A stretch of 64,000 nucleotides of DNA from Fidelibacterota bacterium. GTDB lineage: Bacteria > Fidelibacterota > UBA8477 > JABMPR01. The notes under the pieces are model-generated. The model worked only from the letters and a program-made list of their open reading frames with translations, was not told where the DNA came from and searched no databases. Position 1 is the first letter of the stretch, and each line of letters opens with the position of its first letter. The DNA lies in NCBI GenBank assembly GCA_024278595.1, contig JAJRSW010000002.1:11945-75944 (forward strand). The letters run 5' to 3'. Position numbers and translations under genes: made by a program. Positions 11,078 to 53,060 of this stretch are shown in pieces.

Positions 11078-11089
11078 TGACACTATTAA

Positions 11090-11145: not shown

Positions 11146-11189
11146 TTGGCCAATTCCTAATTGGTAATTGAAAATTCCTAATTAAATCG

Positions 11190-11264
11190 AGGCGTGGGTC
11201 GGATTCGAACCGGCGAATGATGGTTTTGCAAACCACTCCCTTAGACCAACTTGGGCACCACGCC
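11190..11264 (-). tRNA. tRNA-Cys (anticodon GCA)
   Basis: Minus strand: GGCGTGGTGCCCAAGTTGGTCTAAGGGAGTGGTTTGCAAAACCATCATTCGCCGGTTCGAATCCGACCCACGCCT. Perfect 7-bp acceptor stem. Anticodon loop TTGCAAA. Confidence 0.93.
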
Positions 11265-34351: not shown

Positions 34352-37300
34352 ATGAGAAACGCAAGATCGCTGCTTGTTGGCCTGGCTATTATTTCAAATA
34401 TAATGGCTGGAACAACAGGAAAAATTTCTGGAAAGATCACAGACAATTACACAGGTGAGGCCTTGATCGGGGTCAATATAATGGTTGAAGGTACAGGTCT
34501 GGGTGCCATTACTAATATTGATGGTTACTATGTGATCTTGAATATCCCACCTGGTTTCCACACGGTAAAAACCAGTATGATCGGCTATGCCCGTCATGAG
34601 ATCAAGGAAGTTCGCGTTGAGATAGATCGTACTGAGACCCTGAATATCATCATGTCCGAAGAGATCCTGGAGGGCCAATCAGTGGTCATCACTGCCGAGC
34701 GTAGGGTGATCAAGATGGATGTGGCTGCCAGTCAGCGCAGCATGGACGCCGAAAGCATCAAACAGCTCCCTGTCACCAGTATCAGTGAAGTATTGGGACT
34801 TCAGGCAGGCGTGAGTGGTTTCTCGGTTCGTGGTGGAGGAGCGGATGAAACATCTCTCATGATTGATGGCATTGAGCTCAAGGATCAGCGAACCAACCAA
34901 CCTATTACAGGTATCCCCTTAAGCGCTGTACAAGAAATTTCAGTTCAAACTGGTGGATTTAGTGCAGAGTATAACAATGTACGCTCTGGGGTTGTGAATG
35001 TGGTGACCAAGGATGGAAGCGGAGGTTACTCTGGAACCGTGACCATCAAACATAGTCAGGCTGAACCAAAACATTTTGGCATTTCACCCTACGACGCCGA
35101 TTCTCATTTTCTGAGACCCTATCTGGATGATGCCGTGGCCTGGACCGGCACCGAAAATGGTGAAACATATACGGATGTTGATGGCAATGGCTACTGGGAT
35201 GAGGGTGAACCTTATACTGATTTTAATGGTGACGGATCCTACACCGCCTGGGATAAATATGAACAACGTCAGTATCCTGTCTTTGCAGGCTGGAACGCCT
35301 TATCCGAGTCCAGTCTGGGCAATGATGATGCCGGAGATGATCTTTCACCAGCCTCAGCCCAGCGCCTTTTTGAATGGCAGTACCGGAAACCCGGCAATAT
35401 CATCAATCCGGATTATAATGTGGATGCCGGCTTTGGTGGACCGGTCCCCATAATCGGTTCCAGCCTGGGTGACCTGAGGTTCTTTATCTCCTATCGACAG
35501 GAACAAAACGAATATCTTTACCCCGTTTCCCGCTCTGGGACTCTATCTAAGACCACCTTGCTACGCGTGACCTCTGACATTTCTAACTCCATGAAGTTAA
35601 ACATGATAGCCATGGCCGGGGAACTGGAGGCAACTACCTCCTCCAGGGGCGGACTTACCGGGTACCTTTCAAATGTCTGGGATCTTGCATCCCAGGTGAA
35701 CCGGGCTGGTTTTACCATGCCCTGGCGGCTCTACTCAAACGAATATTGGGCACCAACCACAGTATCACATAGCACCATTTCCGCAAAATTCACCCACCTG
35801 CTTAGTTCTTCAAGCTACTACGAGGTTCTGGTGAAACACACACGAAAAAGTTATGATACCGGTCCAGGGCAAGATCGTAACACGGATCAGATCTATGAAA
35901 TATTTGATGGTTATTTTGTTGATGAGGCGCCAGTAGGTTTCTATGGTACACCCCTGACCAGTGTTGAGGGTAAACTGACCATGGGGGGTGCTGTAAGCAC
36001 ATCGCGGGATGAGAGCACGGTCAAAACAAGCTCGATCAGTGGTAATTATACCAACCAGATGAATCGCCAGAATCAGGTGCAAGCAGGTTTCAATTTTACT
36101 TTTGATGACCTGGATATGGAATTCGGATCGCTGAATTATTTCTTGCCTGAGGGCAATTATTGGACCCGAATGCATTATAATCCCTACCGATTAAGTGGAT
36201 ATATTCAAGATAAACTTGAGTTTGAAGGATTTATTGCTTCCCTGGGTATAAATGCAGAGTTTATTGATCCTAGTGCGGCCTGGTATGCTATAGATGTGTA
36301 TGATGAAAAATTCTTTTCCGGCAGCTACAGCCTGGAAAGCGATGATGATTTTGAAAAAGTTGACATTGATCCACAACTGTATATCAGTCCCAGACTTTCC
36401 ATTTCTCATCCCATCACTATCAATTCAAAGTTGTACTTCAACTATGGTCACTATCGGCAGATACCCACGGCTGAAAGCTTATTTCGGATCCAGCGTAAAG
36501 CTGTGTTGAACTCCGAACGTGACATCGAGGATCTAACTCAACTCTCTGTTATTGGCGATCCTACTCTGGAGCAGGCCCGGACGATATCCTATGAGCTTGG
36601 CTACGATCATGCCCTGTACGACACCTATCTATTGCATTTCGCGGCCTACTATAAGGATATCTCGGATCAGCAGGACTGGACCCGCTACATCAGTGCCAAT
36701 GGCAAAGTAAATTACAGCCAGTTAACTGCCAATAGCTATGAAGATATCAGAGGGTTCGAGGCTGATATCTCTAAATTGGTCGGTGATTGGATCACAGGTC
36801 ATGTGAATTATGAATACCGGGTGAATACATCTGGATTTTTTAATATTAAACGGTATTACCAGGATCCGAAAGAGCAAAGCGACTATCTAAAAAACAATGC
36901 AACTCAATTCAAACCCAGGCCGACTCCTAGAGTCAAATCAGTTGTGGATCTCCACACACCTGGAAATTATGGTCCAAAGGTATTTGGCCAGCATATTCTC
37001 AGTGATTGGCATCTCAACATTCTGAGTAGTTGGCGGGCAGGTAGCTGGTTCGAATACAACCCCAAAAACATTGAAGGAATTAGTTATAATTTTCGCTGGC
37101 AGGATGCCAAATCAGTGGATCTCAAATTTTCCAAGATGTTCAAGGCCGGAAAAATGAACATCAAGTTTTTTGCTGATGTAAACAATGCCTTAAACATCAA
37201 AACCTTCAGTACCTATGGTTTTGCTGATATCCATGATTATAACTTCTACATGGGCTCTTTACTGTTAGGCGAAGACAATCTGGAAGATCTGGGGCTGAAT

Positions 37301-37612
37301 GTGTTACCCGGCATCGATCATGCCGATAGTCCTGGTGATGTCCGACCCGCTGATATTGACTTTGTTCCTCTGGAATGGCGGGGTGATATCAGTGATGAAC
37401 TCGATCCGCAGGAAAGACCGATCTATTATGATGCAGCCACTGAGACCTACATGCAGTGGGATCACAACGCTGGCTGGGATGAGGTAGATCAGGCCTATTT
37501 GGATCAGGTGGTTAAGGACAAAGCGTACATTGATAATCCTAATCAAGGTTCGTTCGTCTTTCTGGCGCCCAGAGATATTTTCTTTGGGATCAATATCTCC
37601 TACAATTTTTAA
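34352..37612 (+). CDS. TonB-dependent receptor A with an N-terminal CarboxypepD_reg domain (1086 aa)
   Basis: Signal peptide. GKISGKITDNYTGEALIGVNIMVEG..DGYYVILNIPPG (CarboxypepD_reg). Plug (IKQLPVTSISEVLGLQAGV, IDGIE, FSAEYNNVRSGVVNVVTK). C-terminal aromatic residue ...NISYNF. Confidence 0.88.
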   Translation: MRNARSLLVGLAIISNIMAGTTGKISGKITDNYTGEALIGVNIMVEGTGLGAITNIDGYYVILNIPPGFHTVKTSMIGYARHEIKEVRVEIDRTETLNIIMSEEILEGQSVVITAERRVIKMDVAASQRSMDAESIKQLPVTSISEVLGLQAGVSGFSVRGGGADETSLMIDGIELKDQRTNQPITGIPLSAVQEISVQTGGFSAEYNNVRSGVVNVVTKDGSGGYSGTVTIKHSQAEPKHFGISPYDADSHFLRPYLDDAVAWTGTENGETYTDVDGNGYWDEGEPYTDFNGDGSYTAWDKYEQRQYPVFAGWNALSESSLGNDDAGDDLSPASAQRLFEWQYRKPGNIINPDYNVDAGFGGPVPIIGSSLGDLRFFISYRQEQNEYLYPVSRSGTLSKTTLLRVTSDISNSMKLNMIAMAGELEATTSSRGGLTGYLSNVWDLASQVNRAGFTMPWRLYSNEYWAPTTVSHSTISAKFTHLLSSSSYYEVLVKHTRKSYDTGPGQDRNTDQIYEIFDGYFVDEAPVGFYGTPLTSVEGKLTMGGAVSTSRDESTVKTSSISGNYTNQMNRQNQVQAGFNFTFDDLDMEFGSLNYFLPEGNYWTRMHYNPYRLSGYIQDKLEFEGFIASLGINAEFIDPSAAWYAIDVYDEKFFSGSYSLESDDDFEKVDIDPQLYISPRLSISHPITINSKLYFNYGHYRQIPTAESLFRIQRKAVLNSERDIEDLTQLSVIGDPTLEQARTISYELGYDHALYDTYLLHFAAYYKDISDQQDWTRYISANGKVNYSQLTANSYEDIRGFEADISKLVGDWITGHVNYEYRVNTSGFFNIKRYYQDPKEQSDYLKNNATQFKPRPTPRVKSVVDLHTPGNYGPKVFGQHILSDWHLNILSSWRAGSWFEYNPKNIEGISYNFRWQDAKSVDLKFSKMFKAGKMNIKFFADVNNALNIKTFSTYGFADIHDYNFYMGSLLLGEDNLEDLGLNVLPGIDHADSPGDVRPADIDFVPLEWRGDISDELDPQERPIYYDAATETYMQWDHNAGWDEVDQAYLDQVVKDKAYIDNPNQGSFVFLAPRDIFFGINISYNF

Positions 37613-37642: not shown

Positions 37643-39724
37643 ATGATGCGTTTAAAGAACAATATGATCATCCGATTGTTGGTACTCAATATACTTACCT
37701 TTGGATTGCTTTCGACCCAGGCGATTGGCGCCGAGAGTAAGTGGATTGCTGTTGGGAATCTGCATAACTGGTATTCAGAAGAAGGCTGCGAGATCGAAGT
37801 TGGCCGAACTGGACAAATAAGAGATCAGCAGGATGGTTTGCGGTGGCCGGCTCAATTTAGTTATCAAGATGTTCAGGCAGCTAAGGCGCTGTGGATCGGC
37901 AGTACAAATTTCACTGATCCAGTAGCGGGTAGAACTTATGATTACAAAGTGGTACATGTGGGTCCCAGAGGCCCCGTTGATATTAAAAAAGAGATCATGA
38001 TCGAAGCGTTCAAAATGTATGGTAAGTACGATCATCCCACGGTTTTTGTGGATGGCTTACCGGCCAGTACACTTCAATTCATGGATTTCGTGGATAGTGT
38101 TGATGCTGATATGGCAGCGGATCGACGCATTCTCAACCAAGTGAACACCGCCATGGGGATTACGCTTACTCGGAATATTCGCGGTTATTCAAATCAGAAT
38201 CATGATAATTATCATATCTATGATTATGTATTCGAGAATACCGGGAAGTATGACACTGATGGGAATACTATTAATGTGACGCTTACTGATGTGTACTTCA
38301 TGTTTCAGTATCGCTATGCTGCCAGTCGTGAGGGGGGACCCTATGGAAGTGGGGGCTACTGGTTGCCTCAGAATACCGCCTGGGGCCGCAACACGGTGAA
38401 TGAAGTAATTGGAGAAAACCCGGCGGACGGTGAGATACGGGCACAGTACTCCTGGCATGGCAAGCATTCTCAATCCGCAGATGGCCATGATAACTATGGT
38501 GCTCCCTATTACGGCGATGGCGGTGATGGACACTTAAGCGCACAACAATTTATGGGTGTTGTGACCTTGCATGCCGATACATCACCCACTGATCCCAGCG
38601 ATGACCTGCGTCAACCTTCAACAACCTATTACATTGGCTCAGATGCCCAGATAACCTATGATAATGATCAGTACAACCCGGCCAAGATGCAGGCTCGCTA
38701 TGCCCACATGACGCTGGGGCACCCCCTGGAATCCCATGCTGAATCAGTTGGGGATGGATTTGCCGATACCTGGGGCAATGACCCGGGTGGCTATTCCCAG
38801 GCTCAAGCTTTTGGTCCCTACACGCTGGCTCCTGGCGAAAGTGTCAATATTGTTTTGGCGGAAGCCGTTGCCGGTATCAATCGGGCCCTGTGTTATGAAG
38901 TGGGTGGCAATTGGTTTGATTCCACCATTCCGGTGGGTGAACTACTGAATCCGGATGGTTCAACACCGGTTGATAAAGACGAATACAAGGATAAATGGGT
39001 ATTTACAGGCGAGGATTCATTGCTGCAAACCTTCCAACGGGCCATTGATACCTATGAAGCTGATTATTTCGTTCCAGTGCCACCACCACCACCTGATGAG
39101 TTTGTCGTGACTTCGGGTGGTGATCAGATAAAACTCACCTGGTCCAATTCAGCTGAGTCACATCCCGGATTCATGGGCTACAAAGTGTATCGGTCCATGC
39201 ATAAACCGGATACCACCTATGAGGAAATATTCAACTGTGATGTTACAGCCCTTAGTAATGAATTTGCCGATGTGCAAGCAAAACGCGGATTTGATTATTT
39301 CTACTATATCGTCAGCTATGATGATGGTAATACTAACCTGGTTGCCCCGGGAGCACCCCTGTACAGCAGTAAATTTTATACCATGACCAGCAAAGGGGCC
39401 AGCTTAAAGCGTCCGCCAGGGGAGACTTTAGCTGATATTAGGATCGTACCTAATCCGTTTAACATCAAATCGCGGGATTTGCAGTTTAGTGAAAGCGGAC
39501 CGGATCGCTTGTATTTTTACGATATTCCTCCCATCTGTACCATCCGGATCTACACTGAGCGCGGTGACCTGGTTCATACAATTGAGCATACTAATAACAG
39601 TGGTGATGAGGCCTGGGATCTTATCACAGAATACCGACAGGTTATTGTAAGCGGCATTTATCTGGCGCATTTTGAAGTGCCAGATGGCCGATCAACCTAT
39701 CGCAAATTTATTGTCATTCGATAA
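37643..39724 (+). CDS. Uncharacterised secreted partner protein A (693 aa) with a PPPPP linker, an FN3-like module and a T9SS-CTD-like C-terminus
   Basis: Signal peptide. PPPPPDEFVVTSGGDQIKLTWSNS..GYKVYRS (FN3-like). C-terminus IRIVPNPFNIKS..CTIRIYTERGDLVHTI..GDEAWDL..VSGIYLAHFE..YRKFIVIR. Paralog of 44724-46847. Confidence 0.75.
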   Translation: MMRLKNNMIIRLLVLNILTFGLLSTQAIGAESKWIAVGNLHNWYSEEGCEIEVGRTGQIRDQQDGLRWPAQFSYQDVQAAKALWIGSTNFTDPVAGRTYDYKVVHVGPRGPVDIKKEIMIEAFKMYGKYDHPTVFVDGLPASTLQFMDFVDSVDADMAADRRILNQVNTAMGITLTRNIRGYSNQNHDNYHIYDYVFENTGKYDTDGNTINVTLTDVYFMFQYRYAASREGGPYGSGGYWLPQNTAWGRNTVNEVIGENPADGEIRAQYSWHGKHSQSADGHDNYGAPYYGDGGDGHLSAQQFMGVVTLHADTSPTDPSDDLRQPSTTYYIGSDAQITYDNDQYNPAKMQARYAHMTLGHPLESHAESVGDGFADTWGNDPGGYSQAQAFGPYTLAPGESVNIVLAEAVAGINRALCYEVGGNWFDSTIPVGELLNPDGSTPVDKDEYKDKWVFTGEDSLLQTFQRAIDTYEADYFVPVPPPPPDEFVVTSGGDQIKLTWSNSAESHPGFMGYKVYRSMHKPDTTYEEIFNCDVTALSNEFADVQAKRGFDYFYYIVSYDDGNTNLVAPGAPLYSSKFYTMTSKGASLKRPPGETLADIRIVPNPFNIKSRDLQFSESGPDRLYFYDIPPICTIRIYTERGDLVHTIEHTNNSGDEAWDLITEYRQVIVSGIYLAHFEVPDGRSTYRKFIVIR

Positions 39725-39736
39725 GGGGCTAGAGAT

Positions 39737-40753
39737 ATGTTTAAATACACGATAAATATTCAGGGTCCTCTGCTGTGGATGATGGTCCTATTACCGCTCA
39801 TATTTACCATTAGCTGTGAAAGGTATAATGAAGAAACCTATGAGCTGAACGAACTCGAGCAAGTGATCTGTGATCGGTTTAGTGATACCTTGAGCCATGA
39901 GCTGAAAGCGGCCGATCTTCGCCTCTTTGGTCCCAGCTGGACCGGCAAAGAAGTTGAGCAAACCTTGCTGAATATGGAACGCATCGGGAGTACCTGGTTC
40001 AATGCCGATTTTGAGCTGGAACCTGATGTGTTTGTCTTTTTGGAAGGTGCTGATACGGTAGCAGCTATGCAAATCCTGGATTTCGTGTATGACGATGCCC
40101 TGGTAAGCATGGATAGCATCTACATCGCCTACCTGTATAACCCTGCCGGCACACCGGCATTTGGCGGATTGGTAGCCGATACAATTCTGGTCCTTGATCC
40201 TGGCACAACACCCCTTTATCTGGACTTTAGCCAAGGTGTGGTTGGCGCCAGTGATGACTGGAATATCAGCCTGGATGGTGTCAATATCAAACAAGCCAGC
40301 TTAAGCAAGGTCTTTCGTCTTGAGAATCGATTACTGGCTGCATTTACCACAGCTCCAAAAGAATACTATGCTGCAGATATCCTGGGTTTTGAGTTGGCTG
40401 TTAATTATCTGGAAGCTGACACGATCTATCTCACTGAAACCGATTCACTACTCAGCGTAGGAATAGAATCAAGCACTGATGCCGGGTATATGCTCTGGAA
40501 TCGCCAGGGAATGGGAAGCTCAGAGATCATTTTTAATACCACAGACTATATGACCATCGCCATCTGGGATGAGAGTGGTATCTATCTGGACCCCTCTGAT
40601 GTAACCATGTCCATGCAGACGGTTGCCTATTGCTGGGCTCTAAAGACAAAAGTAGCCTATGAACTTGATGAGTCGACCTATTTAGTTCAATTCCTGCCCC
40701 ATGAAGAAATGGCAACCGCAGAGTTTGACCTGGTTATTGTGGAGGGTGAGTAA
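39737..40753 (+). CDS. Hypothetical lipoprotein (338 aa)
   Basis: Lipobox-like LIFTISC. No recognisable catalytic motif. The DWNISLDGVNIK segment is faintly reminiscent of HmuY-like proteins (weak). Confidence 0.55.
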   Translation: MFKYTINIQGPLLWMMVLLPLIFTISCERYNEETYELNELEQVICDRFSDTLSHELKAADLRLFGPSWTGKEVEQTLLNMERIGSTWFNADFELEPDVFVFLEGADTVAAMQILDFVYDDALVSMDSIYIAYLYNPAGTPAFGGLVADTILVLDPGTTPLYLDFSQGVVGASDDWNISLDGVNIKQASLSKVFRLENRLLAAFTTAPKEYYAADILGFELAVNYLEADTIYLTETDSLLSVGIESSTDAGYMLWNRQGMGSSEIIFNTTDYMTIAIWDESGIYLDPSDVTMSMQTVAYCWALKTKVAYELDESTYLVQFLPHEEMATAEFDLVIVEGE

Positions 40754-40754
40754 G

Positions 40755-41762
40755 ATGAAAATTACAAACGTAAGCATGAAAAACAGCATATTACTGATTT
40801 TGACGCTGAGTTGTTTGGTGAGTATTGGTTCAGCACAGGTCAAACTGGCTCAGTCCGGGGGACAATTCTTAAGTGTTGACTCGGATGCCAAGGCAGGGGG
40901 TATGGCGGGTGCTTTGACCACCATAGAAATGAACTCCGCTTCGGTATTTTATAATCCGGCCGGAATGTCACGCCTGAGTGGCACAGTGGATGTGACAGCA
41001 AGTCAGAATCAATGGTTCGCAGATATTGCCTATAACTCATTTTCGGTGGCCATTAAACCCGCTGATGGTGAATGGGGCGTATTTGCAGCGTCTTTTGTTT
41101 CGGTTGATTATGGGGAGATCCAAGGAACCCAGCGCTGGGACAATGATCAGGGCTATATCGATACAGAGATTCTGACGCCTTCCGCCTATGCTGCCGGTTT
41201 TGGATACGCGAAAGCTTTAAGCGATAAATTTTCAGTAGGTGGTCATCTGAAATATATCGGTTTGAATTATGGGAAAAGTATCTACCCGGATGAAGCAGGT
41301 TTTGCTGATACAGTGAAAGCACACATAAGCTATGCAAACGCTTTTGATTTTGGAACGATCTATCGTACGGGTTGGAAGAGTTTGGCCTTTGGGATGTCAG
41401 TACGCAATTTTTCAAATGAAGTTACCTTTGAATCAGAAGGTTTCCAGTTGCCGCTGACCTTTGCCCTGGGCATTTCCATGGATCTCATGGATCTGAAACG
41501 TGAACAAATGGGTGACCAGCACCTGATGCTGAGCGTGGATGCCCTACACTATCGCTCCCATGCAGAACAAGTTCGAATTGGTCTCGAGTATAAACCAATC
41601 GCTATGCTTTCACTCAGGGCTGGCTATCGGTCAGCTAATGATGAGAATGATATCTCTTTTGGCCTGGGTATCCAGCAATTCGGTCTGGTATTTGATTATG
41701 CCTATGAACCATTTGGCCGCCTGGGAGATGTTCAGCGAATGACAGTCAGATTTTCTTTCTAA
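40755..41762 (+). CDS. PorV/PorQ-family outer-membrane beta-barrel protein
   Basis: Signal peptide, then GGQFLSVDSDAKAGGMAGALTTIEMNSASVFYNPAGMS, which resembles the PorV/PorQ N-terminal signature. Alternating beta-strand pattern. C-terminal ...MTVRFSF. ATG at 40755 is preceded by GGAGGGTGAG. Confidence 0.7.
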   Translation: MKITNVSMKNSILLILTLSCLVSIGSAQVKLAQSGGQFLSVDSDAKAGGMAGALTTIEMNSASVFYNPAGMSRLSGTVDVTASQNQWFADIAYNSFSVAIKPADGEWGVFAASFVSVDYGEIQGTQRWDNDQGYIDTEILTPSAYAAGFGYAKALSDKFSVGGHLKYIGLNYGKSIYPDEAGFADTVKAHISYANAFDFGTIYRTGWKSLAFGMSVRNFSNEVTFESEGFQLPLTFALGISMDLMDLKREQMGDQHLMLSVDALHYRSHAEQVRIGLEYKPIAMLSLRAGYRSANDENDISFGLGIQQFGLVFDYAYEPFGRLGDVQRMTVRFSF

Positions 41763-41781: not shown

Positions 41782-44724
41782 ATGAAACTCAACCTTAAAC
41801 ATATCATTTTTGTGAGTCTGATCATGGCGACGAGCACCTGGTCTGCCACAACCGGTAAGATCAGCGGTCGGGTGAGCGATGCCAATACTGGTGAAGCCCT
41901 AATTGGTGTTAATATCATTATCACTGATCTAGGTCTCGGGGCTGCTACTGATCTGGATGGTTATTACACAATCCTCAATATCCGGCCGGGCAAACACACG
42001 GTCACAGCATCCATCATTGGTTACAGCAGCACAACCGTTGAAAATGTTGAAGTGGTCATGGGGTTGACATCAACCATCGATCTCAACCTGCAAACTCAGG
42101 TATTAGGGATGGAGTCGGTTACTGTTTACAGTGAAAGACCTATTGTTTCAAAAGATCTTTCCGGTAGTCAACTGAATGTGGATAATACCTCTATCGAACA
42201 ATGGCCCATCTCATCGGTAGCCGCGGTCCTGGGTATTCAGGCTGGCGTGGAGAATATGCAGGTCAGGGGTGGCAGTATCACCCAGACTGCTGTTCTAGTA
42301 GATGGTTTTCTGTTGAACGACAGCCGATCCAATGCCCCGGTAACCACTCTGAGTTTAAGTTCAGTGGAGGAGATCCAGATCCAATCTGGCGGTTTTAACG
42401 CCGAATATGGAAATATTCGTTCCGGTATTGTGAATGTGATCACCTCTGAAGGTCCTAAAGATCATTATTCAGGGACCTTTTATTACCAGAACAGCCCGGC
42501 GGCACCCAAACATTTTGGGATATCACCCTACGATGTGAACTCCTACTTCCTGAGGCCCTATCTGGATGATGACGTGGCCTGGACCGGAACAGATAATGGG
42601 GTATGGAATGAGTATACCAGAAGTCAGTATGCATTTTTTGAAGGCTGGAATGGGAAGACCGATCCTGAAACTGGTATAACTGCTACAGCGGCAAAACAAC
42701 AATGGGTCTATGAACATCGGCGTACTGGGCAAATCACCAAACCGGATCAAACTTTAGACCTGGGCTTTGGTGGCCCCATAGCTGTGATTCCCAAACTGCG
42801 ATTCTATCTTTCCTACCGGAATGAAACGGAACAATTTATTATCCCGCTTTCCCGAGATGGCTATCGTTCAAATTCGTCCCGGCTGAAGCTAAACTATGAT
42901 ATCGGTTCCGGTAAAAAATTGATGGGAACGGCACTGTATTCAGAAGAACACTCGGTAAATCAATACAATTGGACCACGGTTCCTGAGGGCAGTTTATTGC
43001 GCGGAACCTATAGTGTCGCCAATCTGGCCAACGGTGCGGTACTATTTACACCTGATTATTTCAGCCCATATTCAGTTTTCAGAGGACGGTTTGATCTGAG
43101 CTATAACCACATGTTGAGTTCAGACTCATTCTACGAGATCATCCTCCAACATGGACGTACGCAATATAAAACCTATCAGGGTGCGGCCCGGGATACGGTA
43201 AAATACGAGATCTTCCCGGGTTTTATGGATGATGAAGCGCCCTATGGTTACGCTGCCAATGAATGGATGAGCCTGGGTCGCGATACCAGCCGTACAAGTG
43301 CCACCCTATTCAAAGCAGATTATACCAGTCAGGTGAATCAACGCAATCAGGTAAGAATGGGAATCCAGTTTGCCTATAATGATTTCCAGGTGCGGTCCTA
43401 CACAGAGAGTGCCAAAGATACCTGGCGTCGGGCCATGAATTATGATGTAAATCCATATCGCTTGAGCGTTTATGTTCAGGATAAACTGGAGTACGAGGGC
43501 TTTGTGGCCAATCTGGGACTCCGGGGAGAATATTCAGCTTCTAATACTGTGGTTTATCAATTGGATGCTTTTGATGATCTGTTCAAACAGGGAGCGGGTC
43601 ATACCCTGGAGGAAATGGCCGAGCAGATCAATGCCATTCCATCCTTTACTCTGAGTCCACGTCTGGGGATCTCACATCCCATTACTGATCGTTCAAAACT
43701 CTATTTTAATTACGGACATTTTTATTCCGAGGCGGGCTCTACCTACAGATTTCGCATTCAGAAAGAATCCAATGGTTTGGTTACAAGGTTGGGCAACCCT
43801 GAATTGGATCAGGAACGAACAATTGCCTATGAGCTGGGCTATTCCCACGGGTTCAATAATACTTACATATTGGATATGGCTGCCTACTACAAGGATATTA
43901 CGGCCCAACCAGGTTGGGTGCTCTATGAAAATGCCAATGGATCGGTGAGCTACCTGAAGGCAGAGAGTAATAATTATCAGGATATCCGGGGAATTGAAAT
44001 GACCCTTAGCAAGCCAAGGGGCGAGATCTTCAGTGGCTTTATCAACTATACGTATATGGTCAGGACCAATGGGTATTTTGGGCTATTGGAATACCATCAG
44101 AATCCCCAGGAACAAGCTGAGTACGAGAGTAAGCATATTAAGGATGATAAACCCAGACCCAGGCCCTACCTGCGCGCCAATATCGCCCTGAGGACTCCTG
44201 ACAAATTCGGTCCCCAAATACTTGGGGCTGCTCCATTGGGAGGCATACAAATTAGTTTTTTGGGTCAGTACAAAACAGGGAGCCAATTTAATGCATATGC
44301 CCTGCTCAACGTCAATGAATACGTACAATGGACCCCACGTACCACTCTGGATCTGCGAGTACAGAAATCGATTGATGTGAAGGGGGCGGGTTTGATGCTT
44401 TTCTGCGATTTCTCCAACCTCCTGAATTCAAAATATCTAAGCTATAGCGGGTTTTCTGATCAACGGGATTACATAGATTATCTCCAATCATTACATTTTT
44501 CATTTGAAGAGGGAACCGAGGCGGGGGATGATTATGTGGGTCGGTACCGTGCTGAAGATGTTGCCTATGATCCTATGGTGGCTAACCCTGATAATGATCC
44601 GGTCATTGCTGCCGACAATGAGCGCCGAAATGAAACTGGCTCATACATAGATATGCCCAATTACCGTTCACTGACCTTTCTGGATCCCCGTAAAATAACC
44701 CTCGGATTAAGGTTTAAATTTTAA
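41782..44724 (+). CDS. TonB-dependent receptor B with an N-terminal CarboxypepD_reg domain (980 aa), paralog of receptor A
   Basis: GKISGRVSDANTGEALIGVNIIITD..DGYYTILNIRPG. Plug motifs. HFGISPYDVNSYFLRPYLDDDVAWTGT is shared with receptor A. C-terminal ...LGLRFKF. Confidence 0.88.
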   Translation: MKLNLKHIIFVSLIMATSTWSATTGKISGRVSDANTGEALIGVNIIITDLGLGAATDLDGYYTILNIRPGKHTVTASIIGYSSTTVENVEVVMGLTSTIDLNLQTQVLGMESVTVYSERPIVSKDLSGSQLNVDNTSIEQWPISSVAAVLGIQAGVENMQVRGGSITQTAVLVDGFLLNDSRSNAPVTTLSLSSVEEIQIQSGGFNAEYGNIRSGIVNVITSEGPKDHYSGTFYYQNSPAAPKHFGISPYDVNSYFLRPYLDDDVAWTGTDNGVWNEYTRSQYAFFEGWNGKTDPETGITATAAKQQWVYEHRRTGQITKPDQTLDLGFGGPIAVIPKLRFYLSYRNETEQFIIPLSRDGYRSNSSRLKLNYDIGSGKKLMGTALYSEEHSVNQYNWTTVPEGSLLRGTYSVANLANGAVLFTPDYFSPYSVFRGRFDLSYNHMLSSDSFYEIILQHGRTQYKTYQGAARDTVKYEIFPGFMDDEAPYGYAANEWMSLGRDTSRTSATLFKADYTSQVNQRNQVRMGIQFAYNDFQVRSYTESAKDTWRRAMNYDVNPYRLSVYVQDKLEYEGFVANLGLRGEYSASNTVVYQLDAFDDLFKQGAGHTLEEMAEQINAIPSFTLSPRLGISHPITDRSKLYFNYGHFYSEAGSTYRFRIQKESNGLVTRLGNPELDQERTIAYELGYSHGFNNTYILDMAAYYKDITAQPGWVLYENANGSVSYLKAESNNYQDIRGIEMTLSKPRGEIFSGFINYTYMVRTNGYFGLLEYHQNPQEQAEYESKHIKDDKPRPRPYLRANIALRTPDKFGPQILGAAPLGGIQISFLGQYKTGSQFNAYALLNVNEYVQWTPRTTLDLRVQKSIDVKGAGLMLFCDFSNLLNSKYLSYSGFSDQRDYIDYLQSLHFSFEEGTEAGDDYVGRYRAEDVAYDPMVANPDNDPVIAADNERRNETGSYIDMPNYRSLTFLDPRKITLGLRFKF

Positions 44725-46847
44725 TGAGTAAGATCAGATTTTATCATCGGATAGTGTGGATGATCGGATTTAGTCTGATCAGTATCGCCGGTTTTGGCCA
44801 AATTGATGGTTCTCAAAAACGCTATGTCAGGGTGGGAAGCCTGCAAAGTCATTTCTCAGCTTATGGGTCGGAAAGAGCCTGGAATAATTCCTACTATGAA
44901 GGGTTGATATGGCCGGCAGACTATCCATTTCAGGACAATTCAGTGATCAAGAGAGCCTGGGCGGCCGTTCAGAACTTTCAAGATGAGAATGGGGTTTACT
45001 GGCCGGAATATGGGATCTATTACACCCTGGCTGCTGAAGGTGTGGGGCTGTTTCCTATGGAGCTCAGGCAAACCTCAAGCTTTAAACCGCCCGATATATA
45101 TGTCGATGGCGATGATCTCAATATTATTTTTGCCGGAGAGATAGATGACTATGATATGGACCAACTCCCAGATCGGATCATCACCAATGTGGTGAACTCA
45201 TCCATGGGACTCACCATGACGCGCCGGATCTATGCCTTTACTCAGCAGTATCACGACAATTATTTTATTAAAGAGTTCACCTTTACCAACACGGGCAACA
45301 TTGATTCAGATCCGGAGATCGAGTTGTCAGCCCCCCTCACAGGTGTGCGGATTGGTTGGGGGACCCGCTATTCAATGGGTCGTGAAGCCAGTTGGACCAT
45401 TGGTGATGGACAAAGTTGGGGAAAACATACCTGGGTCACCCGCCGCGGTGAGGATTATTCACAGCATTATCTTGAGGCCATCACACCTGAAAATCCGATC
45501 GTTGATTGGCTCCGGGCCGGTTTTTCATGGGCCGGTCAAGGGGAAAAGAACACGTTTGACAATATCGGTGGACCGGATCTGCTGGCCAAAGGTCGCCTGA
45601 CTTCACCTCATCACACTGGATCAGTTGTTCTCCACGTAGATCGTGCAGCCAATGATCATAATGATTGGATCGAGCAACCCGTATTTCTCGGCTGGCATGC
45701 TGGGGACACCTATCCCGATGTGGGGGATCAGCGCGTGGATGATGCGCCTTTTATGTCAGAGCTTTACGATATGCTCAGTGGTACGCCCTATGGTGGATCA
45801 TCCATGGGTGGTCAAACCCGCATGGATGAGGAGAACCTCTCCAGCATAACCGATCCAATCGATCCCTGGAAAGTGCATGGTGATGGGGGGGGAACCAATG
45901 TCATGATGACCTATGGTCCCTTTGATCTTGCCCTGGGTGAAAGCATTACAATTGTTGAAGCTGAAGCGATCAACGGGTTGAGCCGAGAAATGTGCGAACT
46001 TATTGGTGAACGCTGGAAAACCGCGTATGATACACCAGGTGATAATGGGCCGTTTGAACTACCGGATGGCAGCGAAACCTCTGATATGAATGTATACAAG
46101 AACTCTTGGGTCTATACGGGCAAGGACTCCCTGATGTTGAGTTTCGGTCGAGCCAAACGAAATTATGACTCAGGATTCAACATTCCCAGACCACCCTTAC
46201 CCCCGGCCAGTTTTACAGTTGAATCAGGGGGTGACCGGATTTATACCAGTTGGTTGCCCAGTCCATCAGAAGCGAACCCAGATTTTGGCGGGTACCGTCT
46301 CTATCGAGCCATTGGTAAACCTGATACGAGCTATACGGAAATATTCGCCTGCGGGCTTGGTACAGCTGTACCGGAATTGACTTATTATTTTGATGATACA
46401 ACACCCCTGAGAGGTCAAGCCTACTATTATTATGTGCTTGCATTTGATGATGGTAGCAATAACAACACGGATCTGAATCCCCGTGGGTCCCTGCATAGCA
46501 GTCGGTTCTACACCAAAACCTCGAAAGCCGCCACTTTAAAACGCAAAGCCGGAGCCCATTTCGATCAGATTAGAATTGTGCCCAATCCCTATAATATCCG
46601 GCAGGAAGCATTTATTGGTCAACCGGATAAATTAGCCTTTTATGACATCCCGGGAGTTTGTACAATTCGAATCTACACCGAACGGGGAGATTTAATAAAA
46701 ACCATCGACCATGACGATGGCAGCGGTGATGAATCATGGTTGCTCAGCACGGATATGCGGCAGGTCATCGTGAGTGGAATCTATATTGCTCACTTTGAGA
46801 AACCTGATGGCACCTCAACCTATCGAAAATTTATTGTTGTACGCTAA
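44724..46847 (+). CDS. Uncharacterised secreted partner protein B (707 aa), paralog of 37643-39724
   Basis: The ATG overlaps the receptor B stop codon (TAATG). FN3-like FTVESGGDRIYTSWLPS..GGYRLYRA. C-terminus IRIVPNPYNIRQ..CTIRIYTERGDLIKTI..GDESWLL..VSGIYIAHFE..YRKFIVVR. Confidence 0.75.
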   Translation: MSKIRFYHRIVWMIGFSLISIAGFGQIDGSQKRYVRVGSLQSHFSAYGSERAWNNSYYEGLIWPADYPFQDNSVIKRAWAAVQNFQDENGVYWPEYGIYYTLAAEGVGLFPMELRQTSSFKPPDIYVDGDDLNIIFAGEIDDYDMDQLPDRIITNVVNSSMGLTMTRRIYAFTQQYHDNYFIKEFTFTNTGNIDSDPEIELSAPLTGVRIGWGTRYSMGREASWTIGDGQSWGKHTWVTRRGEDYSQHYLEAITPENPIVDWLRAGFSWAGQGEKNTFDNIGGPDLLAKGRLTSPHHTGSVVLHVDRAANDHNDWIEQPVFLGWHAGDTYPDVGDQRVDDAPFMSELYDMLSGTPYGGSSMGGQTRMDEENLSSITDPIDPWKVHGDGGGTNVMMTYGPFDLALGESITIVEAEAINGLSREMCELIGERWKTAYDTPGDNGPFELPDGSETSDMNVYKNSWVYTGKDSLMLSFGRAKRNYDSGFNIPRPPLPPASFTVESGGDRIYTSWLPSPSEANPDFGGYRLYRAIGKPDTSYTEIFACGLGTAVPELTYYFDDTTPLRGQAYYYYVLAFDDGSNNNTDLNPRGSLHSSRFYTKTSKAATLKRKAGAHFDQIRIVPNPYNIRQEAFIGQPDKLAFYDIPGVCTIRIYTERGDLIKTIDHDDGSGDESWLLSTDMRQVIVSGIYIAHFEKPDGTSTYRKFIVVR

Positions 46848-46882: not shown

Positions 46883-48121
46883 ATGAAACGATTCAAGATC
46901 ACACTTAAGGTAACGCTGGTATTAGGCCTTCTGGCAATCACATTCACTGGTTGTGAGGAAGACCCTGTGAGTATTTATCAGGATGGCGTTCCAGGAGAGC
47001 CAGCACCCATCGTAACTGCGGTTGTTCCAGATAGTAACTTCAGTGCCGACCATGTCACATTCTCCGGGATTGGTGTTGTGGAGATCACTGGTCAGAACTT
47101 TTCACCAACGCCTGTATTCAATACCGTCTTTTTTGATGGGGTATCCGGTGAAGTGCTTTCATCAAGCACAACATCTATCAGGGTTAAAGTTCCCAAGGTT
47201 GTGGGAGATTCTGTTGCTATAAGGGTTACCGTACAGGAAGCTTATGATTTTGGGGATTATGCTTCTGGATATAAGATCACAACTGCTACACAGGAGATTG
47301 GGGGTATTGAACCGCAGGAACAGCTCTATTCAATTGCCTGCGACTTGAGTGAAACGGTGTGGGTCACAGCTTTGAACGATCCAACGATCAAAATAATTGC
47401 CATCGAACCTGATAGCAGCTTTGAGAACCGGATCTCGTCCTTAACGGTTTCATCCACATCCTTAAAATATGGGGGACGAGATCGCCTGTTCATGACTGGT
47501 GGTGCCATTCTATATTCAATGAACAAAGTTACAGAATCCGTGGATCCAAGTGTATTTATCACACCCAATGCTCAAGATGCCACCCTGGATATTGATTTTG
47601 TGGACTCAACCCAGGCTTTTATGGCTCTAAGGAAAGCGCCAAACCTGGGTTATATCATGACTATTGATCTTGAGACGGTCAGCATGGACACTGCGGCTGT
47701 ATACGATACCCTGACGATCCAATCCATTCGGATATTTGAGGACGAACTTTTTGTAGCTGGTTACTATAAGATCGAAGGTGAGATCCAACCATCAGCAGTC
47801 TGGAAAAACAGTATTTTCGGATCAACGCTGGGACCACGAGAACTGGTCCTGGATCTGGCAGATCACCCGGATTATACTAATGCCCAAATTACTACGATCA
47901 CCTTTTCGGAAGATGGCAAACTGTTTATAGGGCTGAATTCGGTCAATGCAATTTTGGTTTATAAAGATGGTATCCTAAAACCTTACTATGCCCCAATTCT
48001 AAGCCCGCCAACCCTGGACCTTACCTGGGGTAATGGAGATTTTCTTTATCAATTAAAAACAAATCAAATTATAAAAATAAATACGGTTGAGACCGGAGCC
48101 AGCTACGGCGGCCGGTTTTAG
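46883..48121 (+). CDS. Lipoprotein with an IPT/TIG domain and a probable beta-propeller
   Basis: Lipobox ITFTGC. IPT-like IVTAVVPDS..VEITGQNFSPTPVFNTVFFDGVSGEVLSSSTTSIRVKVP. Confidence 0.6.
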   Translation: MKRFKITLKVTLVLGLLAITFTGCEEDPVSIYQDGVPGEPAPIVTAVVPDSNFSADHVTFSGIGVVEITGQNFSPTPVFNTVFFDGVSGEVLSSSTTSIRVKVPKVVGDSVAIRVTVQEAYDFGDYASGYKITTATQEIGGIEPQEQLYSIACDLSETVWVTALNDPTIKIIAIEPDSSFENRISSLTVSSTSLKYGGRDRLFMTGGAILYSMNKVTESVDPSVFITPNAQDATLDIDFVDSTQAFMALRKAPNLGYIMTIDLETVSMDTAAVYDTLTIQSIRIFEDELFVAGYYKIEGEIQPSAVWKNSIFGSTLGPRELVLDLADHPDYTNAQITTITFSEDGKLFIGLNSVNAILVYKDGILKPYYAPILSPPTLDLTWGNGDFLYQLKTNQIIKINTVETGASYGGRF

Positions 48122-48236: not shown

Positions 48237-49568
48237 ATGAAAAAAATGCTAACCCTATTGGTAGCTGTTCTGGTATTGGGCAGCTTCGCTTTTGGTGGTT
48301 GGGAGTTTGATGACGTTCTTGTTTATTTCGACGGAACAGAGATCACAAATTCCTACGGTATGCATGGAGTAACCGTGGATGGTGCCGGAAATATCTGGTA
48401 TGCCATGCATAACTATTCCACTGAAACCCTATATCCAGCCAATGGTGACACAGTATACGTTTATCAGGTATTTGCTGTCCAACCAGATGGCACACCGCTC
48501 AGCTTTTCACCGATCTCAATGCTGACAATTAATGGCGTTGTTGATACTCTGAGCAGCTCTAGTAAAGGAATGGCCACTGATAATGATGGCAATATTCTGC
48601 ACTCTGTTTCTGGTAAACTCTACAAGATCAACTATACCGACGGTACCGGAATGGCCATGTATGACTTTCCTGATTATACCGGATCGCTAACTAAACCTGC
48701 TGTTGATGCCAATGGCAATGTTTATGTAGGTACAGTTGGCCAGGGAAATCCAGTTAAAATTCTAAACTCAAATCTGGAAGAGACTGGAAACGCAATTGCC
48801 GCCTTTAGCGGTGCTTATACTCGTGCCATTGCTGTCTCGAGTGATGGTAAAGATCTCTACTTTGGCAGCACCTGGAACGGAATTGGTATTCGTCACTTCA
48901 GAAGTGAAGTACCTGGAACCTTCCCGCATGACTCCTCCAGTACGATTGGTGGATGGCAGATCGATGATACAACCTTCCAGACCTTATGGCCAGAAGATGT
49001 AAGTATGGGTCCTGATGGCTACCTGTACGCAGCAAACACTCAGATCGATTTTACGGGTGACGCGGATCATGGTTCTCGCTACTGGGTGTATGCTACAGAT
49101 GGTACGGAGATGTACTCTTTTGGTAACCCTGGTGATCCAGATAACCCTGATATCTCCGAACACACCACAGGTGGTATGTGGAATGGTCGCGGTTGTGCCT
49201 GGAGTGCTGATGGTACCACCATGTATGTCGCAGACTTCGGCTACAATTGTATAACTGTGTGGACCCAGACCCCAGATGGCGTCGATAGTCCGATCACTCT
49301 GCCAACTGCTTTCGAGCTGAAACAGAACTTCCCGAATCCCTTCAACCCCTCAACCACGATTGCTTATGAACTCCATGCAGATGGAATGGTTCAATTAACC
49401 GTGTTTGATCTAAATGGTCGTGAAGTTGCAACTCTGGTCAATGAACACTTGAATTCCGGTAGTCATACTGCCTCATTCAATGGCTCAAACCTGAGCTCTG
49501 GTCTTTACATCTATCAGCTCTCCTTCAATGGTGAAGTCAGTGCCAAGAATATGATGCTGGTCAAATAA
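48237..49568 (+). CDS. NHL/SMP-30-like beta-propeller protein with a canonical T9SS C-terminal domain
   Basis: Six blade-like repeats (VDGAGNIWYA, TDNDGNILHS, VDANGNVYVGT, SSDGKDLYFGS, GPDGYLYAAN, SADGTTMYVADF). C-terminus LKQNFPNPFNPSTTIAYEL...MMLVK. Confidence 0.8.
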   Translation: MKKMLTLLVAVLVLGSFAFGGWEFDDVLVYFDGTEITNSYGMHGVTVDGAGNIWYAMHNYSTETLYPANGDTVYVYQVFAVQPDGTPLSFSPISMLTINGVVDTLSSSSKGMATDNDGNILHSVSGKLYKINYTDGTGMAMYDFPDYTGSLTKPAVDANGNVYVGTVGQGNPVKILNSNLEETGNAIAAFSGAYTRAIAVSSDGKDLYFGSTWNGIGIRHFRSEVPGTFPHDSSSTIGGWQIDDTTFQTLWPEDVSMGPDGYLYAANTQIDFTGDADHGSRYWVYATDGTEMYSFGNPGDPDNPDISEHTTGGMWNGRGCAWSADGTTMYVADFGYNCITVWTQTPDGVDSPITLPTAFELKQNFPNPFNPSTTIAYELHADGMVQLTVFDLNGREVATLVNEHLNSGSHTASFNGSNLSSGLYIYQLSFNGEVSAKNMMLVK

Positions 49569-49766: not shown

Positions 49767-49944
49767 CTCGACAAACGAAAAATATGAAGAGGATACCGCA
49801 CATTATGAAGTGAAACTGTTATAACATGCAATATGGGGTTCATTTTTTTATTACGGATATTTTTTAGTTGGTACACCAAAGTTACTTACTTGATTGCGCT
49901 TCCTGTTTATCTTCCAACCTGAAATATATATTAAGGAGAGCATT

Positions 49945-52900
49945 ATGCGTTTGCGTCTGGTATTATTAACCCTGTTTGTTTTTGCCAGTATTGGCTGGTC
50001 CCAAACTGATAATGAAGAATTTCGATCCACCTGGGTCATCACTTGGGAACACATCAGCGGATCCAGTACGGTGGAACAGAATCAAGCTCGGATCCGGGCT
50101 ATCATGGATAACCACGTCGACGCGAATATGAATGCTGTCCTGTGGCAGGTCCGGCAAAGTGGTACCGCTTATTACAATTCATCCTATGAACCCTGGGGTT
50201 ACTATGCCGGGGGTAGCAATCCTGGTTATGATCCACTGGCATACGCCATCGAACAGGCCCATGCCCGTGGGCTGGAGCTGCACGCCTGGTTCAACACCTT
50301 TCAAGCAGCCTCCACCGTTCCCGGTACACCAGCCGCTGAACATCCCGAATGGGTCTGTCGCGACCAGAGCAATATCCCTATGGACTCCTACCGGGCACTT
50401 TCTCCCGGTCTGGCAGACGTACGTGAATATCTGGTCGACGTCGCCATGGAAGTGGTCAATAACTATGATATTGATGGCTTGCATCTGGACTATGTGCGCT
50501 GGAACGAATATTCCAATAGTGGATTCAACCGGATCACTCCTGATCCAGTCAAAGAGATTAGTGCGCTGGATCAGCTACCAGATGAGACTATGATCGAGGC
50601 CTTGCTTGACCCTCAGTCAGGACGATATCTTTATGACGTTGAGCATACCTACAACAGCGGCGTCCCGGCCGGATACCCAAATTGGGAGGAATTCTGGCGT
50701 TCATCAGTGACGACCTTCGTTGAGACTTTACACGATTCCATCCAAAGCCAAAACCATGGGTCAGACTCTCAGTGGCAGCCCTGGGTAAATACAATTGGAG
50801 CGGTTGGAATGGTTATAATGTTGTTTATCAAGATGCCGCCCTCTGGTTTAACCAGGGCTATATCGAGCAATTGTCCCCCATGCACTACCACTGGACAACA
50901 TCTTCAGGATTTTATGATATGCTGGTGGGGGGCAGTCCGTATTGCTGGGCTGACTATATCCAACCGGGAATTAGTGCTGGCAGGCTTTATTCAGTGGGAC
51001 CTGGTTCCTATATATTGGCCAGCAACAATGTCTGGTCGCGTCACCCTGCCATTGTCAACGCCAGCCGGTCAGTACCCTGGGTTGACGGTTTCCAATTCTT
51101 CTCTTACGGGACCTGGCAGGACTATCAGTATTGGCCCATTGCCGGTAGTTCCTTTTTTAGTGAGAAGACCAAGATCCGTGATATGGGTCTTTACGTAAGT
51201 GATGCACCACCCTCACCATCGCTCTCCATCACAACCGTAGATCCTCTGACATTTGATATTACTGTCACACCGGCTCCGGGAGTCGGTATTGATCAATGGT
51301 GGGCCCTCTATCGTTCAGCAGCCGATGACATTGATGTGGATGATAGTGAGATCATCGGCATCTATTTCGGAAACGAGACCTTTACGGTCACCCAGGCATT
51401 TGATGGGACTCAGGATCACAACGGGAGCTATTTCTATTCAGCAACCATGCTGGATCGGTACTGGAACGAATCACTTCTGCCAGGCAGTGTGGAATCAGGT
51501 ATCCTTGAGTCATTTCCACCTGTCATTGTAAATACTTATCCCGTAGATGGTGATACCATCGATGTGAGTGCCCTGATGAGTGTCCGCTTCTCAAAGACCA
51601 TGAATACAGAATCAGTTGAATCAGCCATCAGTATGGTACCTGATGTAGGCCTAGATGCATTTACCTGGTTAGAAGATGGACAACGTCTGATTATTTATCC
51701 CTTGAATGATTTCGAGTTTGAATCGAGTTACACCTTGACCATCAGTGATGCTGCCCTGGATATCAATGGTGTGGCCTTTGATGGAAACGCCGATGGCGTG
51801 GCTGGCGGGGATTATATTATTAATTTTCATACGCTGGCAGTGGATGAAGCGGGTCCCCAACTACTTTACAGTACCCCGGAAATCGCCACAGGGGCCGAAG
51901 AATTTAATGTTGAAGCTGTCGTATCATTTGTGTTTGATGAGATGCTGGATCCAGCATCAGTAACAACTGAGGCCATCAGTTTTGATCAAGCAGGTGCGGA
52001 GCAGGAATTTGAATATCTGTTAACTGGTCGTTATAATAAAAGTGTTCTGGATATTAAAATGTACGAACCGCTGGCATCCCTAACCGATTATTCGATTACA
52101 CTGGCATCCAGTATTACTGACTTACTGGGAAATCCGCTGGATGAAGATATCTCGGTATCCTTTACTACCTTTAATGAGCATTACACTGAAATTGATGTTA
52201 TCGATAATTTCACCTATGCGAATGAATGGTGGGATCCGGAAGGCAGTGGATCCACTACCGGAACCATCGGATCAACCACATATTTTGCTTATGCAAGTTC
52301 CATTTATCTGCCTGGATCGAGCATCAATGCATCCGGGAAGAAGTCGGCTTATATCAACTATGAGTGGGACACCAGTGCTGGTTCACATTTGCTCAGGGAG
52401 TACATCCCCAATACTTCCACCCAGGCCAGTGTCCACTTTGACAACTCCTATATTCTGCAGTGTTATGTGTATGGAGATGGCAGCAATAATCAATTCCGAT
52501 TTGCCATCGATGAAGCAGTGGGTGAAACCTGGAACACAACTGAGGTTTCGACCTGGTACACCCTTGATTGGGAAGGTTGGAGATTGCTGGAATGGGATCT
52601 CAGTGATCCCACTATGGTAGGCGGTTGGATCGGTAATGGTGTGATGGACGGTACCAGCTATCGCATGGATAGTTTTCAACTGACCTATGATACCGAATAT
52701 GGAGAGGCTACTGGAAGGATTTTTGTGGATAATTTGCAGGTGATCAAACGGATGCCTGGGGTAGCTATTGATGAGGATCTAGATCATTTGTTGCCAACTG
52801 AAGTGACCCTTAACCAAAATTATCCCAATCCTTTTAATCCTGAGACCACCCTTAGTTTTGAACTGCCCTATGCGATGGATGTTCGACTAGCTGTTTATGA

Positions 52901-53060
52901 TCTGCGTGGACGCCAGGTCCAGGAATTAATTACTGGCCAGCAGAATGCTGGCACCCACAAACTGCCTTTCAAGGCTGCCGATCTGGCGGCTGGTGTCTAT
53001 CTGATTCGTCTGGAGACTGAAATGGGTAGTCAGGTCAAAAGGATGCTGCTACTGAAATAA
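49945..53060 (+). pseudogene. GHL10-family (YngK-like glycoside-hydrolase-like) protein with Ig-like modules and a canonical T9SS CTD, interrupted by a single -1 frame break near 50749-50753
   Basis: Frame 1 reads ...ETLHDSIQSQ and then loses protein-like sequence. Frame 0 reads KPWVRLSVAALGKYNWSGWNGYN... from 50751, continuing the same domain. The break is at an A4 run (AGCCAAAACC). The C-terminus is LNQNYPNPFNPETTLSFELP...MLLLK. Confidence 0.75.

Follow-up and report, generated by a model that had tools for sequence, protein, structure and literature searches.

To our knowledge, C-terminal domains (CTDs) that are retained on PorV/PorQ barrels have been reported only from type IX secretion system (T9SS) components themselves, PorZ and PorU, and barrel anchoring of cargo only in type B CTDs paired with PorP/SprF. 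PorU and PorZ are T9SS substrates with uncleaved CTDs that are seated on PorV and PorQ, respectively, and PorQ holds PorZ at the surface (PMC10947112). Proteins with type B CTDs also keep this domain and are anchored by a neighboring PorP/SprF-like barrel (PMC9143113). Here, we analyzed a 64,000-nucleotide stretch of a Fidelibacterota genome (contig JAJRSW010000002.1, hereafter the window) in which genes for TonB-dependent receptors are followed by genes for large secreted partner proteins. Our main subjects are partner A (693 amino acids; 37643..39724, forward strand) and its paralogue of the same architecture, partner B (707 amino acids; 44724..46847, forward strand). An initial annotation of the window had proposed that both carry a divergent T9SS-type CTD after a fibronectin type III (FN3)-like module. 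Three independent lines of evidence, namely sequence profiles, profile-profile comparison and predicted fold, bear this proposal out, and we regard the C-terminal domain of the partners as very probably a genuine, if divergent, homologue of T9SS CTDs. Our best reading is that each of the two partners serves, at the cell surface, as an accessory of the TonB-dependent receptor whose gene directly precedes its own. The parts of this arrangement (T9SS CTD, PorV/PorQ barrel and TonB-dependent receptor) are known; their combination as a widespread module appears to be undescribed.

The gene pair formed by receptor A and partner A resembles SusC/SusD (RagA/RagB) in that a TonB-dependent receptor of the CarboxypepD_reg type has a large secreted partner encoded immediately downstream. 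Receptor A (1086 amino acids; 34352..37612, forward strand) consists of a CarboxypepD_reg N-terminal domain, a Plug and a divergent barrel (Pfam CarbopepD_reg_2, 68.7 bits; Plug, 40 bits). Unlike SusC/RagA, it fails the SusC/RagA model (71 bits; cutoff 368), its match being confined to the N-terminal 150 residues. The partner is in turn unlike SusD: it is beta-rich instead of all-alpha and tetratricopeptide repeat-like, has no lipobox and has no SusD Pfam match, and the surface route proposed below is T9SS export with a barrel anchor instead of lipidation. Receptor B (980 amino acids; 41782..44724, forward strand) matches Pfam CarbopepD_reg_2 and Plug, and its stop codon and the partner B start codon overlap.

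Architecture of the partner proteins

The AlphaFold2 model of partner A, for which 65 homologues were used (pLDDT (predicted local distance difference test) 89.1; predicted template modeling (TM) score 0.85), resolves the protein into a Sec signal peptide (residues 1-30), a beta-rich N-domain with some helices (31-475), a proline linker (~476-485), an FN3 domain (486-565), an ordered linker with pLDDT >90 (566-598) and a seven-strand CTD (599-693) with a low-confidence insertion or loop at 606-617 after the PNP motif. The CTD of partner A, predicted to be a seven-strand beta sandwich, is encoded with its stop codon at 39437..39724 on the forward strand, and that of partner B (residues 616-707) at 46569..46847, also on the forward strand. 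The C-terminus of partner A reads as initially reported, ...IRIVPNPFNIKS...CTIRIYTERGDLVHTI...GDEAWDL...VSGIYLAHFE...YRKFIVIR, and partner B carries PNPYNI at the corresponding place. The proline linkers that had been pointed out are present as well (VPVPPPPPDEF in A, IPRPPLPPASF in B), as are the FN3-like strings (IKLTWS...GYKVYRS in A, YTSW...GYRLYRA in B). The FN3 assignment holds at the level of structure: the model places strands at residues 486-560, and Foldseek matches the segment to tandem FN3 structures. A full-family profile searched against PDB sequences gave a weak FN3 match only (3mpc, E = 0.066).

We examined the signal peptides of 120 homologues. By inspection they are of the signal peptidase I type, a lipobox was found in none of the 120, and the mature N-terminus, E[ST]KWIAVG, is conserved. 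Cysteines picked up by a regular expression belong to an AGCE motif of the mature protein or to the hydrophobic core of the signal peptide and form no lipobox, and the lipoprotein route was rejected. The N-domain has many invariant charged residues. It has no Pfam or NCBIfam match in partner A, in partner B or in the 65 members scanned, and among those 65 we detected neither a catalytic family nor a SusD-family Pfam match. We did not assign the N-domain to the GH94 phosphorylase/dextran dextrinase supersandwich fold, for which Foldseek on the full model gave E ~1e-6 but TM scores of 0.20-0.26 and root-mean-square deviations (rmsd) of 9-21 Å. More than 1040 homologues of partner A were found. 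Members of the family are currently annotated only as 'fibronectin' or hypothetical, because the CTD scores below the curated cutoffs of both the type A and the type B models.

A divergent, probable T9SS sorting domain at the extreme C-terminus

The comparison with TIGR04183 suggested in the initial annotation returned in-register matches below the cutoff of 23 bits: partner A scored 15.5 bits, partner B 17.7 bits (E = 0.0026, covering profile positions 3-71) and the isolated domain of A 20.7 bits (E = 3e-4). The type A model PF18962 gave 12.8 bits (cutoff 27), and the type B model CHU_C gave 16.2 bits for partner A (cutoff 27). We scanned 25 family CTDs one by one against NCBIfam and Pfam. 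The four NCBIfam families matched most often are all T9SS sorting-domain models: the PorZ C-terminus (22/25, best E = 1e-7), TIGR04183 (15/25, best E = 7.8e-6), the PorU C-terminus (13/25) and the M6i CTD (9/25). The commonest Pfam matches were CHU_C (19/25, weak, best E = 1.2e-4), Por_Secre_tail (7/25) and FlgD_ig (5/25).

The window itself supplies canonical CTDs for comparison. Four cargo proteins (7268..10396; 48237..49568; 50772..53060; and 54981..57824 on the reverse strand) have the previously reported N[YF]PNPFNPxTT[IL]...[AS]G[LV]Y...K/Q ends, and all four pass TIGR04183 with 29-38 bits. A hidden Markov model (HMM) of the family CTD searched against all open reading frames (ORFs) of the window found a single weak in-register match, to one of these canonical cargo proteins (E = 0.024). 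We judged the profile too narrow for this search and therefore turned to profile-profile comparison. When the family CTD (121 sequences) was aligned by hhalign with the four canonical CTDs, the match had a probability of 93.2% (E = 3e-7, 76 columns). Thirty column-shuffled controls gave at most 2.3% and the family's own FN3 domain 4%; a reversed-alignment control reached 32.5%, but over 9 columns only, at the near-palindromic PNP motif.

For the predicted fold, a CTD-only AlphaFold2 model (seven strands, pLDDT 83.4) was searched with Foldseek against 350,542 PDB chains. The best match to these last ~95 residues was PorZ (5m11; E = 4.6e-5, TM score 0.66, rmsd 3.1 Å), and PorU (6za2) ranked second and fourth. 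The matches also included CTDs of cargo bound to the T9SS translocon, NucA (8glk_D, TM score by target 0.71) and RemA (8gl6_D), as well as FlgD Ig-like domains (3osv, E ~4e-3). The initial annotation had held that a lack of profile or structural similarity to T9SS CTDs would count against it; similarity of both kinds was found.

The position of the domain is equally consistent. It ends at the last residue in partners A and B and in 120/120 close homologues, all of which finish in [IV][IV][IV]R with an invariant terminal arginine. With the CTD profile we searched 1.84 billion representatives and retrieved 5,862 clusters (50% identity) with E no higher than 1e-3. Among the best 150 of these, nearly all have the domain at the extreme C-terminus, and most are proteins of ~700 amino acids. 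Separately, a protein of 3930 amino acids encoded outside the window (P0202) matches CTD-profile positions 31-66 alone, 14 times, which suggests that the central CTD hairpin (..CTIKIYTERGDL..) also serves as a repeat unit in this giant protein.

These data bear on the idea that the domain is a structural Ig-like module of the FlgD_ig type that has no role in secretion and contacts the receptor or a substrate, in a partner that is periplasmic or held at the surface by other means. Such a module would account for CTD model scores that all fall short of their curated cutoffs, for the FlgD structures among the fold matches and the weak FlgD_ig matches in five members, and a fixed protein-protein interface would fit high conservation. 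We nevertheless consider it very unlikely. By fold and by profile the domain matches T9SS proteins better than FlgD, it sits at the extreme C-terminus, four canonical T9SS cargo proteins lie in the same window, flagellar context is absent, and the linkage to a PorV/PorQ-family gene described below is almost obligatory.

Likeness to PorZ and conservation of the domain

The partner CTD shares with type A CTDs its place at the extreme C-terminus, a predicted beta-sandwich, the motif order PNP...I.IY..G..V...SG.Y...K and a hydrophobic tail. It differs in scoring below cutoff, in an insertion of ~10 residues after PNP, in the invariant terminal arginine and in being conserved far above its passenger domain. 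Among T9SS CTDs it is most similar to that of PorZ, which ranks first by fold and in the profile counts: the PorZ C-terminus model matches 22/25 partner CTDs and, weakly, 1/4 of the canonical CTDs. Similarity to PorU was rejected as evidence for retention, the canonical CTDs of the window matching the PorU C-terminus equally (E ~1e-8). The PorU match is thus generic to type A CTDs, and similarity to PorZ alone is specific to the partner family. The partners are not PorZ orthologues by the NF052228 model, of which only profile positions 697-756 of 757 match, with 12.9-17.7 bits against a cutoff of 260. In agreement, the modeled N-domain is unlike the PorZ propellers, and 5m11 ranks 38th for the full partner A model.

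The second distinctive feature, which goes beyond the initial annotation, is the extreme conservation of the CTD. Mean pairwise identity in the family is 69% in the CTD and 56% in the N-domain, which makes the CTD the most conserved region. Between partners A and B the bias is steeper: they are 37% identical overall, with 70% identity for the CTDs and 31% for the N-domains. The linker that leads into the CTD is both ordered and conserved. Because a signal that is cut off is not expected to be the most constrained region of a protein, the CTD would seem to be kept as a permanent protein-protein interface, and the conservation pattern argues against its removal by the PorU sortase.

The alternative is an ordinary, divergent type A signal: a PorU-like sortase would remove the CTD, the partner would be released or attached to glycolipid, and the PorV-like protein would act as an export shuttle only. 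The shared motifs (PNP, I.IY...G..V, SG.Y and a lysine with a hydrophobic tail and basic end), the 93% hhalign match to type A CTDs and the TIGR04183 matches in 15/25 members are all compatible with this, and PorV is a known shuttle of type A cargo (PMC5562754, PMC10947112). We think it unlikely, since a disposable signal would hardly be 70% identical between paralogues whose functional domains have diverged to 31%. Moreover, the linker is ordered and conserved instead of flexible, PorZ is the closest relative by both sequence and fold, and a general shuttle would need no barrel paralogue for each cargo gene, an arrangement seen in loci with several pairs. The initial annotation had opposed a functional CTD to a non-cleaved Ig-like module; our evidence favors taking the two descriptions together, as a functional sorting domain of the retained PorZ type.

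A PorV/PorQ-family barrel encoded beside the partners

The strongest contextual evidence is a PorV/PorQ-family gene linked to the partners, which had been overlooked in the initial annotation, as had the tightness of its linkage. Its ORF (40701..41762, forward strand) encodes an outer-membrane barrel that scores 174.9 bits with the PorV family model NF033709 (cutoff 90), 67.1 bits with the PorQ model and 65.9 bits with the PorV model; its only match among PDB sequences is Flavobacterium johnsoniae PorV (6h3i_F). The first ATG of this ORF, at 40701, overlaps the upstream lipoprotein ORF by 53 nucleotides. A methionine at 40755 (MKITNVSMKNS...), just past the upstream stop and followed by a normal signal peptide, is likely the true start. 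Five adjacent barrels from other loci gave 180-223 bits with NF033709, and in 5/5 the PorQ score exceeded the PorV score. They do not qualify as PorP/SprF proteins, reaching at most 26.8 bits with TIGR03519 (cutoff 90.55). Because two or three pairs of partner and barrel occur together in several loci, the adjacent barrels appear to be dedicated paralogues and not a single housekeeping PorV.

Between the genes for partner A and the barrel lies a gene for a small predicted lipoprotein (338 amino acids; 39737..40753, forward strand) with a lipobox-like ..FTISC. The protein is weakly conserved, has no Pfam or NCBIfam family match and has weak homologues at the equivalent position in ~25 loci. A second predicted lipoprotein (..TFTGC; 46883..48121, forward strand), which contains an IPT/TIG domain (Pfam TIG, 27 bits), is encoded downstream of partner B; in most of 80 related loci such a gene comes after the PorV-like gene. 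The lipobox-like signal peptides of these two proteins suggest that lipoproteins also belong to the module. The gene that follows at 48237..49568 (forward strand) encodes one of the canonical cargo proteins, a predicted beta-propeller with a type A CTD (Por_Secre_tail, 37.4 bits; TIGR04183, 35.3 bits). The beta-propeller call comes from a weak, sub-threshold SGL-like match, and the gene is present in most related loci.

We examined gene order in those 80 related loci, taken from GTDB species representatives, and counted testable cases only. The common order is receptor, partner, small lipoprotein (in some loci), PorV/PorQ-like barrel, TIG-domain lipoprotein and canonical T9SS cargo, and a second receptor-partner pair is often next. 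For A-type partners, a homologous receptor is encoded directly upstream in 68/71 cases and a barrel within 1.5 kb downstream in 68/71; B-type partners have a receptor upstream in 35/36.

The window contains a third pair, at its end. Receptor C (1181 amino acids; 58103..61648, forward strand; Pfam TonB_dep_Rec_b-barrel, 88 bits, with Plug and CarbopepD_reg_2) is followed by partner C, a long-type partner of which 780 amino acids are visible before the gene runs past the end of the window (61661..64000, forward strand). In 40 related loci (L081-L120), relatives of partner C have 950-1625 amino acids, and close relatives ~1606. These C-type partners end in the same CTD subtype (..VVPNPYV..CTIRIYT..GKFAVIK). 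The gene directly next to them is of the PorV/PorQ family in 41/41 complete cases, often with a further receptor after it, and essentially all C-type loci have a receptor upstream. By BLASTP, partners C and A share faint FN3-level similarity only, and the probable kinship of the A and C types rests on the shared CTD subtype and on synteny. The order receptor, partner, PorV/PorQ-like barrel is near-obligatory across phyla. The family occurs in Fidelibacterota/Marinimicrobia, Calditrichota, KSB1, and Ignavibacteria and relatives, mainly outside Bacteroidota, in several other phyla of the Fibrobacterota-Chlorobiota-Bacteroidota (FCB) group. Caldithrix abyssi DSM 13497 has a member, WP_006931028.1. 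We found no description of the family or the module in the literature, including the papers that report the Caldithrix abyssi and Melioribacter roseus genomes.

The synteny also speaks to the view that the partner is a secreted enzyme or adhesin merely co-transcribed with a barrel and a receptor that act independently. The invariant charged residues of the N-domain would suit such a protein, as would its best GH94 phosphorylase supersandwich match (E = 7e-7, with a TM score of only 0.25) and the presence of other secreted proteins in the same cluster. However, the adjacency of receptor and partner approaches the strictness of SusC/SusD, in several phyla and for three divergent paralogue types; the stop and start codons overlap in pair B; and the 65 members scanned yielded no catalytic family. 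We give this view little credence.

Two known types of pair come close to that of partner and barrel. Like type B proteins (SprB-SprF, PG1035-PorP), the partner has a non-canonical CTD, which type B proteins keep and the partner putatively keeps, and a dedicated adjacent barrel, and CHU_C matches weakly in 19/25 members; unlike them, it is paired with a barrel of the PorV/PorQ family (175-223 bits) and not of PorP/SprF, and CHU_C stays below its cutoff. With the PorZ-PorQ and PorU-PorV pairs of the Porphyromonas gingivalis attachment complex it shares a C-terminal beta-sandwich of the T9SS type and a PorV/PorQ-family barrel as candidate dock. It differs in its passenger, which is unrelated to the PorZ beta-propellers or the PorU sortase, so that only the C-terminal ~60-90 residues match, and in its genetic setting, being linked to a TonB-dependent receptor gene, repeated several times per genome and found mainly outside Bacteroidota. 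CTD retention is known for PorZ and PorU and would be a property of the partners by extension.

A model for export and surface retention

A T9SS is very likely present in this genome, given that the window encodes four type A cargo proteins of canonical form and also has a PorV-family gene. We propose that Sec carries the partner over the inner membrane by way of a plain signal peptidase I signal and without a lipid anchor, and that the partner would then cross the outer membrane through the T9SS, using its divergent C-terminal sorting domain. As in PorZ and PorU, the sorting domain would stay on the protein and would not be exchanged for the lipopolysaccharide anchor of type A cargo. The retained CTD may dock non-covalently on the dedicated PorV/PorQ-family barrel of the same operon (40701..41762), which would keep the partner at the surface next to its receptor, where the N-domain would capture or process substrate. 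We favor retention and docking because the CTD is closest to that of PorZ and under strong constraint, the linker is ordered and an adjacent barrel is near-obligatory. We assign a probability of roughly 0.6 to this reading as a whole, in which the partner is exported by the T9SS, keeps its CTD as PorZ does and is held by its own PorV/PorQ-like barrel beside the receptor. Taken separately, dependence of export on the T9SS is probable, and CTD retention with anchoring by the barrel has about even odds. The partner would also cooperate with its receptor.

Several observations weigh against this model. T9SS core genes (porK/L/M/N or gldK/L/M/N, sov/sprA) were not recognized among the ORFs of the window, which were partly scanned and partly inspected and which do not extend to the regions that would hold them. 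Partners A and B remain under the curated cutoffs of every CTD model, and a search of PDB sequences with the CTD profile returned nothing at E up to 10, PorZ included. Few CTD-bearing proteins are in the PDB, PorZ and PorU among them, so the top rank of PorZ could in part reflect sampling. The strong constraint on the CTD might stem instead from an interaction with the receptor or the FN3 domain. For B-type partners, the barrel is directly adjacent in only 4/14 cases, though present in the locus in 13/14. The N-domain has no recognizable function. What the sequences and models show is CTD homology, predicted fold, conservation and synteny.

Other features of the window

ORFs 49894..51198 and 50772..53060, both on the forward strand, overlap and resemble one gene with a frameshift near 50770-50800. 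The joined product (49894..53060) would combine a GHL10 glycosyl-hydrolase-like domain with Big_5 Ig-like domains and a canonical Por_Secre_tail. ORF 49894..51198 has a tail that reads as if out of frame, for which a sequencing error or a pseudogene could account. At 13973..16987 on the reverse strand, a gene encodes a fusion of 1004 amino acids between a GH3 (NagZ-like) glycosidase and a beta-lactamase-fold domain, with a signal or lipoprotein-like N-terminus. Fidelibacter multiformis, the sole cultivated member of the phylum, is reported to live on exogenous muropeptides (PMC11652737), and it is possible that the fusion is linked to the use of cell-wall fragments. An Rfam scan of the whole window identified two tRNA genes only (10993..11264, reverse strand). 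It revealed no riboswitch or regulatory RNA upstream of the receptor operons, and neither a riboswitch nor a regulator hints at the substrate.

Implications

The logic of a retained CTD docked on a barrel appears to be reused here, in several copies per genome, for mounting accessories of TonB-dependent receptors, and this in phyla where SusD-type lipoproteins are largely missing. Lineages such as Marinimicrobia, in which the family occurs, depend strongly on TonB-dependent uptake in the ocean. More tentatively, and at somewhat less than even odds, a three-part module of receptor, T9SS-exported partner with a retained PorZ-like CTD and cargo-specific PorV/PorQ paralogue may replace SusC/SusD outside Bacteroidota. 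In such a module, the paralogue would collect the partner from the translocon and anchor it permanently by the receptor. On this reading, PorV/PorQ paralogues would make up a broad family of surface anchors, each specific to its cargo, and nutrient import in abundant, mostly uncultured bacteria of ocean and sediment would have the T9SS as one of its structural components. The family member in Caldithrix abyssi DSM 13497 (WP_006931028.1) makes the model open to experiment in that organism. If the model is correct, proteins now called 'fibronectin' or hypothetical would gain a cellular address and orphan PorV/PorQ paralogues a predicted function. It would also mean that present CTD models overlook a whole class of T9SS substrates.

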